64,000 nucleotides of DNA. Origin: Eledone cirrhosa (Eukaryota). The stretch lies in the NCBI GenBank assembly GCA_964016885.1, contig OZ024740.1, positions 682,001 through 746,000 of the forward strand, read 5' to 3'. Under the pieces are notes generated by a model. The model saw nothing but the letters and a program-made list of their open reading frames with translations, did not search any database and had not been told where the DNA came from. The translations under genes were made by a program, and so were the position numbers. This document shows, in pieces, positions 41,437 to 62,962 of this stretch. The first letter of the stretch is position 1. Each line of letters starts with the position of its first letter.

Positions 41437-41866
41437 TAGGAGGTGAGTTTTATTGTAGTACAATAAAGCAATGCAGATATCGGATAAGAAGCACTTTACA
41501 GTTTGTGGGACTGGAGTATACATAATATATAAGAACAAAAGATGGTTAAAGGAGTTCCATGTATTTTATTATGCGCATTTCAAAAACAAATATCATCATG
41601 CAATAATATTTGTGTTTTCATCAGATAAAACAGGAGGACATGATATGAAGGCTAAAAAACACTTGTGGATAGTTCAGTTTTAAATCAACATATCATATAA
41701 ATATGTTGATTTAAAACTGAACTATCCACAAGTGTTTTTTAGCCTTCATATCATGTCCTCCTGTTTTATCTGATGAAAACACAAATATTATTGCATGATG
41801 ATATTTGTTTTTGAAATGCGCATACATGGAACTCCTTTAACCATTTTTTGTTCTTATATATTATAT
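41437..41866. mobile_element. Palindromic hammerhead-bearing element (arms ~170 bp, 7-nt spacer 41694-41700)
   Basis: Inverted repeat read directly; (TA)n flanks; homologous to 51163-51490. Confidence 0.85.
41564..41630 (-). ncRNA. Type I hammerhead motif with long stem II
   Basis: TTTTAT-CTGATGA-[~15-bp stem II]-GAAA-TGCGCA-TA|ATAAAA; palindromic stem III. The mirror + copy has lost the 3' strand of stem I by an 8-nt deletion. Confidence 0.78.
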
Positions 41867-44800
41867 ATATATATATATGTATACACACACACTTTTTTAT
41901 ATATATATATATACACACGTATATGTATGGCCCTTCCAGTTTCATTTCCCATTATATACATGTCTGTGCATATTTTAATTATTTAAAAATTATTTTTAAG
42001 TGAACATGATTTTTAAAAAAAATTTTGAATTGAACGTTACCCGTGAGGTCACGGGTGGTCTAGTTATTTATAATGTTCAATGTAAGGGAGACAACTCTGT
42101 CAAGGCTAACTATCAATAACAAGAGACAAGTCTTAAATAACCTTTTTGATGCCAACCTAACTGAAACTGCCCATTTTTATGATAAAAACTGTCCCATAAA
42201 ACTCTTCATTCATATATTAAAGCTTTCCATCATAATGAAAACGTTACTTTATTAAATCCCTCCAAATTTTTGATTATTATCAAAATTAATTTAAACATAC
42301 ATGTATGGTAACAAAAGGGATAAATATTATATCTGTGTGTGTGTAAACAACATATGAAATGATTTGAAGCATTGAATGTGTAAATAATTCATAAAATTGT
42401 AGAAACTTAAATGCTGAAATAGCTGTAAAACACAAAGAGTCAGGTTAAACAAAGCCTCTTAATGAACGAAAGAGCATTCAGAGAAGAAGAGATGAAAGGA
42501 ATAGAGCAAATAGCATATGATGAAATATGGGAGAGATAATGTGAGTGATAGAGAATATAATGTTGTATGGAAAAGTAAGAATGGGATAACAAGGGAGAAA
42601 ATAAAGTTGAATGACAAAAAAAAAAAAAAGTAACCATAACATTGGGACCTCTTCAGCTTCCTTGTAGCCACATGATCTCATATGTATTTAAGGCTAGCCT
42701 GCACAACAGAATCATCATCATCATCAGCAGTCGTAACTGAACATTACTTATGAGAATGAATAATGTTTTCCCAGAAAGAGGACAACAGACGTGATGTATG
42801 TCTGACATGAAAATGAAAGCCTCAGATTTTTTATGAGAACATAAAAGTGACAAGACTTTTTGCTTGTCACTTTGATAAATAATCTTAGAAAGGTCACTTC
42901 AGATCACACCTGAAATAAACCAAGTTGTTATTACATGTTTTCTTACTTACCTGACTAACTTCAACAAAACTCTCTCTAGAATATTCTAAGAGTAAATTGA
43001 CATTACCAATAATACAGAATTAATATTTTCAACTTCTGATGTTTGTAATTGTTATATGTATAAGAGAACATTTAAAGAATTCTTGGAGTGAGAAAAATGT
43101 TACTGCTTGTAGCAAAAATTTACCTAATTATTTCAATAGAATTTATCCAAACATTGGTAAGTTTTGTTATTTTGTTTGCTTTAATTCTTACCATCTTGTA
43201 ATGACTTAGCAGAAACTGTCTAAAAAAACGAGTTTGTTAATTCAAATGTTTATAGTATATTTACTGGTAAACAGATCATTTTGAACATTTGCAGCATTAG
43301 AGGAAAGACTTTAATATTTAATGTTATGCAGTCATAATATTGTTTTGTACTCTTCAAGAGTGTCTTGCTAATGCAGTTTGATGCAGTATAGGATGTTAAG
43401 AGTTAATTGACAACAAATTTGCAGTTGTTAGAATGTAGAACAAGAGGACTTGCTACATTTGTCCTAGCTCACTGCACTTGAGTTCAAAATCTGCTGAAGT
43501 CAACATCTTTAGGTATTGCTAGAATAAAAGTATCAGTCCAGGCTGGTTAGTTGCCAGAATCATTAGACTATTTTGTGAAGTACCAGTCTCCCTTCTCCAC
43601 ATCACCAATGTTGTCCAAGGGAAACATAAAGGTCCAATATAGCTTGGCACTAGTGACATTGCAACATACACATACATTATATATACACTATATATGATAT
43701 TGTGCAAGTGAGAGGCAATGACCAATACTGCTTGGTATCAGTGATGTCACAACTCCTTTCTACAGCTGAGTGAACTGGAGCAATATAAAATAAATTATCT
43801 TTCTCGTGGACACAACACATTGCCCAGTTCAGCAATCTGACTCACAACCTCACAATTGTAAGCCCAATACTCTAAACACTAAGTTATGTACTTGTAAATC
43901 AATTATAAAGTCCCCTCTTCTTCATTTAATCGTCTGTACCCTTCCTCTAACATTTTGTATTGTTATAAACCAATTTGTACTTGCTATAAACCAATTATAC
44001 AGTCCTCTCTCCTACACTTAGATCTACATCTACTCAGGGTAACTTTTACAATACAACTGAACAGAGAAAAAAAAATAATAATGAAAATGATTGTATACAG
44101 TGCTCAGGTGCACTATAACTCACAAAGGTGCATGTATGAGTTATTATATATACACAGACACTTACGTGTGTATGGAGGGGGAATATCAGGTGTAGTGTTG
44201 GCGAATTTTGGGAATCATGGAAGTTTTGAAGGATGCAGTGTCCCAACAGCTAACAACTGATGCAGGTAGTTTGTTCCATGCTTCAGCAACTTGAGCATGA
44301 AAAAATGTTTCCAAAAGTCATGGAGCTGTACTGTTTTCTGATTTTGTAAACATGCTCACGGGTGTTAGACACGTGGAATTCAAAAATGCAAGGACTTAAG
44401 TGTTTTAGCAATAGAAAGCAACCCCAGTAATTTAATTAATACTGCAATCTATTGATAGGGTTACCTTTAAAGGATATATTGAATTTTATAAATCTCTTTC
44501 TTCACTGATTTGGTTAAATCCAATCAACTACAGACAATCAATGTTGAGCATTTACCACCAGATATACAGCAATTTGTTCACCAGAAACGCTTCTTGGAAG
44601 GTAAGTCATCAATTACCACATTTTCATTAAAGTGACACTCACACACACACACTCCACTTGCACACATCCACATACATACACATGCACACATACCCTACTA
44701 TTTCTACAATGCAACCCCTATTATTTCTATGATGTAACCCCTATTATTTCTACAATGCAACCACTATTATTTCTACATTATGGGCTGTATGTATGTTTAC

Positions 44801-60857: not shown

Positions 60858-61050
60858 ACTGCTCTGTAGAACAACTGATGTTATTACATTGAGCTATTTA
60901 TCTTACTGGTAATAAGGTAGTAATAAATTACTGACCTTCACTGTTTAAGGTTTAAAATATACATAACTACAAAAAGTTTAATATATACATAATCATAAAT
61001 AGTATCCTTAATATTATATATATATCTATAAAATAAATATATATATATAT

Positions 61051-62962
61051 AGGAAAAGGTATGACCCCGACGGTAGAGCTGAAGCCGTTTCGACAGCTAT
61101 TTCTGGACTAAATTAGAATTTTTAGCCTGGTAAATAAATAGCCGAACTTGTCAAGGGGTAGTTCCTTATATGGGAAGATTGTAGTTGTCAAGAGGATTGG
61201 TCAAAATTTGTTGTAAACACAAATAAATCTATCATGGCATTTGGTGGGAGGTAGGGCTGGCTGAACTTGCCTGTAGAACAATAAGGGAGTGAGTAAAGCC
61301 AGTCAGGCATTGAAAGTGAAATCTATACAGTAGATTCTAAGGATAGTGTATGAAAAGTCGAAACATTGTTCTGGAGAAAAAGGAGGAGGGGAGTTTAAAG
61401 AATAGGTAAGTCAAGTGGGAGTAGGAGACAATGAAAAAAAATATATATAAAAAATTAGATAGAGAGAAATGAATAAAAAAACAAAAACAGTAAAGTCTAG
61501 AAATAGCTGCTATAATTAGTAGGTGTTGCTTGTACAGAAAAGCTATAGAAAAATTTTATAAGTAGGGGTGGGGGTACTGAGGCTACAGAGGACCGATAGG
61601 CTGCATCGGGGTAAGCGAAAGGGGAAAAACAGACGAGGAAGAAGATCGGGGGTGGAAGGAAGTGATAGGATGAGACGGGGGTAAGAAGAAAACATAGAGG
61701 AAAAGAAACGAGGTACGTCTATCTATGTAAGCTGGGGTTTACCCTTACTTATTCGGCAAGTGTGTGGGGGGGGGGGGGGTATCAGCCCTTGTCTACCCTC
61801 CCGGGTCGTTATGGGGTTTGAGGGCGAGGTAAGTCCTACGCAATCTGTGCTTGCATGCGGTTACCAGTTCGTCTTTCTTGTTTAGGAGTTGGTCCTTCGA
61901 AAACAGCATTTGTAATGTTTCCTCCGAGCATAAGTTACACGGACGGCGTCCTCTCATGTAAGAGTTAGCTCTGGACAGTAAGCTCCAAGTGAGATTGTAG
62001 GTTATATTATTATCTTTGAGGTCCCAGATGTGGCCCGAAAGTGTAGTGGCATGTCACCGGACCAGTTTTCGGAAAGTATGTCGGTGTTGGTAGAGCCGGG
62101 TCTTGAAGTCACAAGCAGTTAATCCAATATAAGCTTTTTTGGAGGTGTCCGTCCTCACGTTGCACTGGTATATCACGTTACGTTCTCGGCATCTGTTGTT
62201 GAGGGGGCACATAGATCTATCAGGGTAGTTACACCTCCTGGTCGGCTCTCCACTGATGTCTAGGTTGTTTCTTCCATAGGGGTTGAGTTTTTGTTGTTTG
62301 AGGAGACGATGTTTTGTGCGAAGTTAGGTGTGGTGCTGTAGGAGAGTTTGATGGTGTTTTTGTTGATTATGTTGTGGTAGCGGTGTTGTAGTGGGAAGTG
62401 TTTTTCGAGGAGCCTAAAGAAGATTTTCCCGATAGGTGTTGCCACCTCGGCATTGTGGGGAGGATTGAACCACGTTATGTTGCGTGAGCGGCGGTGTCGC
62501 CTGCTGGTTCCGCTAAGGGAAGCTGGATAAAAGGATATTTCCTCCCAGAAGCCACTCCGCTTGAGGGCCTGGTTGTAATGAGGCACATGTTCGTCGAATA
62601 TCTGCTCATTAGCGGACAAACGAGATATGCGGAGGGAGATGTTTTTAACCAAGTTATTGGTGATGTTTCTAGGATGGTTAGAGCGACAGTGGATGTAGTG
62701 TAGGTTGTTGTTTGGTTTCCAGTATGGGTAGTACAGATCATTTTCGAGGTTAAGGGTAACGTCCAGGAAATTTACTCGGGTTAGGGACGTTTGTAGGGTG
62801 ATTTTAAATCCCCAGTCCCAGAAGAAGCTGATTACTTGTTTACGGACCCGATCTGTACTACTGGGGTTGTACCCTTTGAGAATGAGGATCCCATCATCTC
62901 GGTACAATCCACCGCTGAATGCAGGAAACATTTCGGTGAGTTTAAATAGTAGGAATAATCCC
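61051..62962 (-). mobile_element. Penelope-like element: 3' RT, GIY-YIG endonuclease and terminal (pLTR) region
   Basis: YRDDG, VNFLDVTL, WFNPP; then CPLNNRC..NVIYQC..YIG..CNLC; frameshift and stop present. Confidence 0.9.
61064..61159 (-). ncRNA. Degenerate hammerhead in the PLE terminal region
   Basis: ACCCC-TTGACAA (two changes from CTGACGA)-long stem II-GAAA-CGG..CCG-TC|GGGGT; partial second copy at ~49880-49940. Confidence 0.65.

Follow-up and report, generated by a model that had tools for sequence, protein, structure and literature searches.

What kind of element leaves a cluster of long palindromes, several of them bearing hammerhead ribozyme motifs, in runs of (TA)n beside a Penelope-like element (PLE)? 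Such a cluster lies 3′ of the final exons of a HECT ligase gene in the octopus Eledone cirrhosa, within a 64-kb window of contig OZ024740.1 (positions 682001-746000; host genome 3.0 Gb), to which all coordinates below refer. An initial annotation, made from the sequence alone, read the palindromes as several families of PLE-mobilised, non-autonomous parasites. We find it nearly certain that they are head-to-head pairs of 5′-truncated ends of PLEs, or of their partners, inserted in (TA)n, and not a mobile unit themselves.

Palindromes are inverted pairs of truncated element ends

Self-BLAST confirmed all seven palindromes of the initial annotation, labelled here A (at 41437; self-BLAST span 41517-41869), B (45743; 45746-45940), C (51163; 51243-51490), F (56053; 56052-56377), G (57603; 57601-57989), D (59970; 59963-60257), and E (60430; 60430-60857), and likewise the inverted copy of the window PLE, labelled W (62413-62961 / 63450-63998, or 61049-62961 / 63450-65620 with the neighbouring stretch added). 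The (TA)n flanks and the extra tail on one arm, described at first for most of the palindromes, were found for all: (TA)n contains or adjoins each of the seven as well as the PLE inverted copy, and every window palindrome has a one-sided tail, that of F having been split off by a later insertion (Table 1). PLE stubs are nested in one another's TA runs, with D, E, and W stacked in this way at 59900-61100.

A first look at copy number, in which only 40 candidates were scored per family, gave 1,324 genome candidates for A, 679 for D, 2,030 for E, 3,038 for B, 3,964 for W, 1,306 for F, and 3,636 for G; a 21-mer of family A had 8,150 exact genome matches, versus 0 for a control 21-mer. Among the first 100 of these matches, inverted pairs were 41-67 bp and 0.16-6 kb apart, and the long-spaced pairs contain the open reading frame (ORF) of a PLE. 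An inverted pair was recovered at 58 of 59 family-A loci, 57 of the 58 with the tail on exactly one arm; the tail was also confined to one arm in 27 of 28 pairs in a subset selected without a tailed query. Flanks were TA-rich at 30/30 family-A loci and in 26 of the 27 scored long copies, the exception being mispaired.

The two arms of an insertion belong together: 103 allele comparisons were minor in both arms and 13 in one arm only, versus 23 and 171 after shuffling. Junction centres differ between copies through overlap, filler, and slipped repeats. With varied centres and arms of one subfamily, each family-A palindrome appears to be built anew at insertion. A partial tandem pseudo-long terminal repeat (pLTR), an inverted 5′-truncated copy, and a tail at either end were seen across A, D, E, F, G, and W. 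The family-A end was found in short-read contigs of three organisms, where loose ends pass into simple repeats, either exactly at the same pair of 3′ end points or close to them; one of the short-read runs, DNA run X1, possibly derives from the same sample as the assembly.

Coding parents and non-coding partners

The parents of family A are ~3.4-4 kb long and, when full length, run in the order pLTR, tail, 5′ untranslated region (UTR), ORF; ORFs of 806-809 aa are intact in 7 of 20 long copies. Judged by motifs only, the 809-aa ORF codes for a reverse transcriptase (RT; YRDD at 365) followed by a C-terminal GIY-YIG endonuclease (IYEC..YFG at 687-701). Its DKT motif takes the form HSDKTNNLY, and it has RLRWTA where Hydra-1_Obim of Octopus bimaculoides has RMRWKA; by eye, it further has a CxCx5C linker (CNCRIKNKC), a CxxC (ICNLC), and a CxH (CLHK), with an endonuclease without CCHH. 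The RT ORFs gave nothing significant in Pfam or PDB, and the family-A parent is, by these motifs and by-eye comparison with Hydra-1_Obim, a Hydra-clade PLE. Element C is an older subfamily of family A, 81% identical to A, so the initial description of the hammerheads as lying in unrelated sequences does not extend to these two. The W protein is 39% identical to that of family A and also has CxCx5C-type motifs by eye. Sequence upstream of E was Hydra-like in 3 of 12 fetched loci (L231, L239, and L240), and E is, as judged from this likeness, the 3′ end of a Hydra-clade PLE.

The other families are non-coding, B probably so. The D sequence ends a young unit, 2.84 kb long and with one hammerhead per unit, and the D loci fetched held no PLE protein match and no ORF. 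G is a ~710-bp unit that forms partial tandems and has no recurring hammerhead; Hydra ORFs near G loci were considered as its parent and discarded, being in opposite orientation or separate insertions. The B unit, short and older, has its 5′ ends clustered. Family F consists of a 256-bp unit headed by a tRNA-Ser-like sequence (ARAGORN and Rfam); it occurs in partial tandems and as inverted copies in TA, and has two 3′ ends. Its 5′ starts fell within about 7 nt of the tRNA head in 8 of 23 loci, and no ORF was present in the loci seen. The tRNA-related head, the absence of an ORF, and the 5′ ends at the head match a tRNA-derived short interspersed nuclear element (SINE). Hammerhead repeats of Schistosoma have tRNA-like promoters.

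The loci fetched, which were small samples ranked by likeness to the query, included no coding parent of D, of B, of F, or of G. A 3′ motif common to the families was sought in 28 pairwise alignments, none clearly above shuffles except a weak 35-nt match (score 29) between the 3′ part of F and the stem II insert of the W hammerhead (56300-56370 versus 61080-61120); 6 of 1000 shuffles reached this score, and the match is post hoc, one of 28 family comparisons. It serves as a weak lead to the partner of F. We conclude that D, F, and G are non-coding partners of PLEs, as B probably is. The proposed PLE link and TA preference are thus borne out by RT-coding parents and TA-rich flanks, while the notion of non-autonomous families holds for D, F, G, and probably B, but not for A/C and E, which are truncated copies of coding Hydra PLEs.

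Probable priming from both DNA ends

Integration models can be compared in these young families, which are sharp-ended, number thousands of copies, and retain intact ORFs, since the two rival models yield different countable predictions. In the model that we consider probable, uncut element RNA is primed from two ends. The RT/GIY-YIG protein would cut both strands within (TA)n, priming would start from one DNA end at the tail's far end and from the other DNA end at the pLTR end, and the two cDNAs would be joined through microhomology or filler. For the short, near-perfect palindromes of family A, the template would be a short RNA whose 5′ end is fixed, both cDNAs stopping at the same base. The hammerheads would likely be passengers at insertion; a palindromic stem III would need a second RNA for cleavage.

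The position of the tail bears on this model. Of 33 long family-A loci, 27 could be scored and 6 gave no scorable pair; 13 had the tail on the shorter arm and 7 had it on the longer, 4 were near-symmetric, 2 had no tail, and 1 had a tail on both arms. A short arm copied from the long arm cannot gain a tail, and the ratio of 13 to 7 therefore favours priming at both DNA ends. The PLE Poseidon of Anolis, for its part, cuts and extends both strands in vitro and starts reverse transcription at two internal sites that define the tail; it is predicted to dimerise, and ribozyme cleavage is unnecessary (PMC11167929). Two RT start sites combined with priming at both ends account for a tail on the short arm and fit this in vitro behaviour (PMC11167929).

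Some observations weigh against the model. In 7 of 20 asymmetric family-A pairs it is the longer arm that bears the tail, which also fits fold-back copying, and the same holds for most D and E pairs seen, the E sample being query-biased. Moreover, differences between arms have no strand bias (T>C 17, A>G 16) and give no sign that the arms were reverse transcribed separately; a hint of strand-biased RT errors in a small set (T>C/A>G 9 versus 0) was gone in the larger one (17 versus 16).

A fixed 5′ start in family A

In a hand count of the first 100 matches to the family-A centre pattern, 45 start at a single base, which we term +1, 54 continue into parental sequence, and 1 breaks ≤13 nt upstream. 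Genome-wide, the parental C at −1 is missing in 3,997 of 11,401 arms, which gives a lower bound of 35%, and contigs of runs X4 and X5 begin at the family-A +1 as well. Starts are likewise clustered in D, B, and F, and the cluster of F starts at the tRNA head supports reading such sites as transcription starts. The family-A +1 is, from the pattern of its ends, probably a capped transcription start in the pLTR. At 100 non-C junctions, the −1 base was G in 45, T in 42, and A in 13 (hand count).

Two results count against this assignment. Among the 45 G's at −1, 17 are templatable by the partner arm and 10 are ambiguous; the 18 that are left unexplained suggest, as a soft hint, a reverse-transcribed cap. 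The starts of the 5′ pLTR in 17 full-length A loci are scattered, with no pile-up at +1, so that the +1 RNA and the full-length mRNA are not simply one and the same, and +1 as the start of that mRNA is not supported. TATA and initiator motifs, inspected by eye as support for +1, were unconvincing. The +1 site falls within a 6-nt palindrome.

We regard as possible, though doubtful, a wider life cycle in which a short capped pLTR RNA, running from +1 to the tail, is copied twice by the PLE protein from the two ends of a cut in (TA)n, the resulting stubs, each retaining +1 and the tail, fire outward both ways and seed more stubs, F is mobilised in trans, and the hairpins are ADAR-edited. If true, this would be a SINE-like life cycle derived from a pLTR, with thousands of strong-stop-like palindromes; near-perfect hairpins would occur genome-wide, and PLE stubs would be the cephalopod counterpart of inverted Alus in primates.

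Hammerhead motifs

The window was searched with a strict type I descriptor, which was widened post hoc to long stem II, a Y.Y mismatch at the base of stem II, and U3-A8 and U4C cores. The strict form had 2 matches in the whole window (41624 on the minus strand, and 11858, outside the cluster). The widened form had 7, versus 0.18 on average (and 1 at most) in 40 shuffles: one in the left arm of A, one in each arm of D and of E, one at the PLE end (61154), and one at 11858. An Rfam scan of the window reported no hammerhead, only a tRNA and hairpin look-alikes. By family, the widened descriptor matched 30/30 loci for A, 25/25 for D (loci partly overlapping), 14/17 for E (as U4C), 7/25 for W (as U3-A8), and 5/25 for B. 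These hammerheads have a long stem II of 20-61 nt, whose base carries a Y.Y mismatch in B, D, and E.

Of the five palindromes said to carry hammerheads, those at 41437 (one arm), 59970, and 60430 (as U4C) have complete motifs, in which the type I core with palindromic stem III is upheld, whereas the other two are broken. At 45743, the family B core (CTGACGA together with stem I's 5′ strand) is absent, being located upstream of where the copy is truncated, and CTGATTGA in the window copy is part of stem II, not of a core. The copy at 51163 has a disrupted stem III (TACGCA), and its second arm retains only the 3′ half. Of 17 aligned E loci, 13 have the core CCGAAGA and none has CTGAAGA; the U4C change is said to lower hammerhead activity and yet persists in viroids (PMC3088659). 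The motif in the terminal region of W, taken at first for a remnant, is a complete U3-A8 variant with a 56-nt stem II. No hammerhead was detected in F or in the window copy of G, in keeping with the original description of the elements at 56053 and 57603 as ribozyme-negative.

Further hammerheads or hammerhead-like motifs lie elsewhere. At 11858-11822 (minus strand), outside any palindrome, there is a canonical type I motif with a 7-bp stem I and GUC, probably another PLE end, and the locus flanks hold many more hammerhead families with palindromic stem III (TATGTA, TATATA, TACGTA, CGATCG). About 90 nt upstream of the query, G loci have CTGATGA-TTTC-GAAA in a hairpin of type III-like topology without stem I; it is absent from the window copy.

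Uncut templates, hairpin RNA, and likely editing

The predicted cut site was read through in 97 of 100 family-A arms, the other 3 breaking ≤16 nt upstream; inserted copies thus derive from uncut RNA, and insertion of ribozyme-cut RNA is not supported. Palindromic stem III suggests that cleavage would take place as a dimer (PMC4209133). When the full palindrome was folded, the hammerhead stems had a probability of 0; yet even in a single arm stem I hardly formed (0.002) and stem II did so in part (about 0.38), which counts against the model.

Cephalopods edit RNA heavily from A to I. Run X5 is RNA, as its contig joins HECT exons over two GT..AG introns. Within the family-A end, 7 of 7 X5-specific changes were A>G or T>C, at 4-15% versus ≤0.06% in DNA run X1; each occurred in 13-27 contigs, and none had a 5′ G neighbour. 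The HECT stretch had no X5-specific change at a 5% threshold. These changes are likely ADAR editing of both hairpin arms. Host read-through transcripts would fold into long hairpins, which would block the ribozyme and would likely be ADAR-edited; the idea that hairpin RNA is an editing substrate is supported by both the folding and the X5 changes. Counting against this interpretation is the reach of the editing signal, which comes from one run, as contigs only, in a sample different from the DNA, and over a 24-nt stretch. Competition between ribozyme and antisense, proposed for transcripts of either strand, applies to read-through host transcripts but not to RNAs begun at +1, which lies mid-palindrome, so that they would carry the sense ribozyme only. 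Genomic arms have no A>G excess (16 of 182 differences), from which edited hairpins are not the insertion templates, and edited RNA was dismissed as a template for this reason. If the editing signal holds, double-stranded RNA has a large source in the PLE stubs of cephalopods.

Alternative origins of the inverted arms

The same parents could yield inverted arms by self-priming, a single cDNA or antisense RNA folding and being copied back, as has been proposed, antisense RNA included, for the Penelopes of Adineta (PMC3846280). Arms that have subfamily alleles in common and mirror 38 private variants in both copies would follow naturally, as would the near-symmetric long palindromes (4 of 27), the +1 inside a 6-nt palindrome, and a long arm bearing the tail, as many D and E copies have. 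We nevertheless hold this route to be unlikely: of the 20 asymmetric A pairs, 13 have a tail on the short arm only, and there simple cDNA fold-back fails, although a version with an antisense template may survive.

That the palindromes are independent non-autonomous fold-back parasites, retrotransposed whole and poised between cleavage and hairpin formation, as the initial annotation had it, is more improbable still. The closest matches to copy A are of equal length and often have an identical centre, D, F, and G lack an ORF in the loci seen, and hairpin RNA does exist; but likeness to the query was what ranked these matches, and unbiased copies have varied centres, so that the palindrome does not spread as a unit. 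Short and long copies have subfamily alleles in common, the absence of an A>G excess in genomic arms stands against it as well, and A/C, E, and W have coding parents. Least credible of all, and in our estimate hardly worth entertaining, are assembly chimeras, or DNA transposons of the MITE or Foldback kind that duplicate a TA target. They would explain long inverted repeats in TA context but not the one-sided tail, 5′ truncation, variable inner ends, partial tandems, and RT-coding parents, and read chimeras are excluded by thousands of dispersed copies with varied junctions and by identical ends in other runs. Two-ended priming on uncut RNA is thus the origin that we prefer.

Relation to known elements

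The overall arrangement is for the most part the known footprint of Hydra PLE insertion, not a new class of fold-back parasites. Endonuclease-bearing PLEs of the Hydra clade have inverted 5′-truncated copies, a tail at either end, TA targets, and hammerheads (Craig et al. 2021, PMC8557442), and the origin of PLE tandem and inverted ends is called an open problem there (PMC8557442). Family A has in common with Hydra-1_Obim the C-terminal GIY-YIG, DKT, CxCx5C, the (TA)n target, and a hammerhead near the 3′ end (PMC8557442), but it is longer (809 aa, with an asparagine-rich insert and a ~1 kb 3′ UTR), shows RWT in place of RWK, its tails measure ~35-145 nt, and the hammerhead listed for Hydra-1_Obim differs from those of the window families. 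The available part of that paper describes neither a short class with a fixed start nor a tRNA-headed partner in the Hydra clade.

The hammerheads are type I with palindromic helix III, predicted dimer cleavage, and a U3-A8 variant, as in the known pLTRs of PLEs (Cervera and de la Pena 2014, PMC4209133), where opposite-strand pairs 100-700 bp apart were ascribed to truncated PLEs (PMC4209133); here, unlike in the part of that work available, stem II is long, its base has a Y.Y mismatch (B, D, E), and E is fixed for U4C. Retrozymes of the non-LTR kind are non-autonomous PLE derivatives (PMC7229834; bioRxiv 10.64898/2026.07.22.740005), likewise short non-coding units with pLTR-related type I hammerheads, and the partial tandems of F and G resemble them. 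Retrozymes are, however, tandem arrays that give circular RNA, and inverted forms are not discussed in the available text, whereas the window copies are inverted, D is 2.84 kb, and F has a tRNA head with no detectable hammerhead. Tandem units that each carry a type I hammerhead, by which retrozymes are recognised, were not found: the window copies are inverted, and the tandems of F and G are without a recurring hammerhead.

Adineta Penelopes (PMC3846280) and Anolis Poseidon (PMC11167929) have in common with the window families head-to-head junctions, an optional tail, two RT starts, and an uncut template; the tail-on-short-arm count obtained here opposes simple self-priming, and the available parts of those papers describe no single-base 5′ hot spot. 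In the mostly open-access literature, without Repbase, there was no report of these octopus palindromes, of a single-base or strong-stop-like PLE class, of a tRNA-headed PLE partner, or of editing of PLE stubs. The single-base start class, the excess of short-arm tails, cut-site read-through in family A, and the editing signal may thus be new.

Other features of the locus

Table 1. Positions of palindrome arms, tails, and related stubs in the window
Feature	Coordinates	Strand	Remarks
Family A tail, 82 nt	41436..41517	-	In full-length elements continues into 5′ UTR and ORF
Family A arm 1	41527..41693	-	Last ~167 nt of autonomous Hydra-type PLE; begins at fixed +1
Family A arm 1 hammerhead, complete type I	41624-41570	-	Stem I 8 bp, stem III TGCGCA, AUA
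Family A arm 2, tail-less, from +1	41701..41859	+	Cut site lost by 8-nt deletion
Family B inverted arm	45738..45823	-	Self-BLAST
Family B long arm and tail	45840..46018	+	3′ half only of family hammerhead (GAAA CATATG TA)
Solo older family B copy	49637..49860	+	74% to another copy
End stub of W family, 60 nt	49877..49936	-	
Element C, tail and short arm	51160..51319	-	Older family-A subfamily
Element C long arm, tail-less	51303..51494	+	Hammerhead with broken stem III
Family F tail	55149..55201	-	Separated from arm by later ~830-bp repeat insertion
Family F left arm	56035..56218	-	tRNA-derived 256-bp non-coding unit
Family F right arm	56218..56387	+	tRNA-Ser(GGA)-like head 56218-56290; no hammerhead found
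Tail-bearing end stub of W family	57481..57588	+	
Family G short inverted arm	57591..57709	-	Self-BLAST
Family G long arm and tail	57699..58124	+	~710-bp non-coding tandem unit; copy without hammerhead
Family D tail-less arm	59967..60106	-	Complete hammerhead 60075-60026
Family D arm and tail	60103..60396	+	3′ end of young 2.84-kb non-coding unit
Family D tailed-arm hammerhead, complete	60145-60194	+	Stem III TGATCA, AUA
Family E tail-less arm	60430..60638	-	U4C hammerhead at 60517
Family E arm and tail	60631..61016	+	3′ end of older Hydra-type PLE
Family E tailed-arm U4C hammerhead	60770	+	Stem III CAATTG, GUA
W short arm, tail-less	61049..62961	-	U3-A8-core hammerhead 61154-61075
W long arm, frameshifted Hydra-type RT	62950..64000	+	Runs beyond window to about 65700, tail at end

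The HECT E3 ligase exons lie on the plus strand at 13420-13555, 25815-25911, 26958-27045, 27860-27965, and 28624-29400, the last four joined in a single RNA contig. An intron of this gene contains long tandem arrays at 18321-20042 and 20250-25810 (48-bp and 38-41-bp units), the 48-bp unit being similar to an RTE 3′ UTR repeat. A broken Helitron, with helicase and Rep motifs judged by eye, occupies 244-4988 on the minus strand, and two copies of a probable non-autonomous Helitron derivative lie at 14287-15138 and 55188-56054, one of which parts the family F arm from its tail. Just past the window, at 69473-70803 in window-extended numbering, there is a complex inverted repeat whose arms are 99-100% identical.

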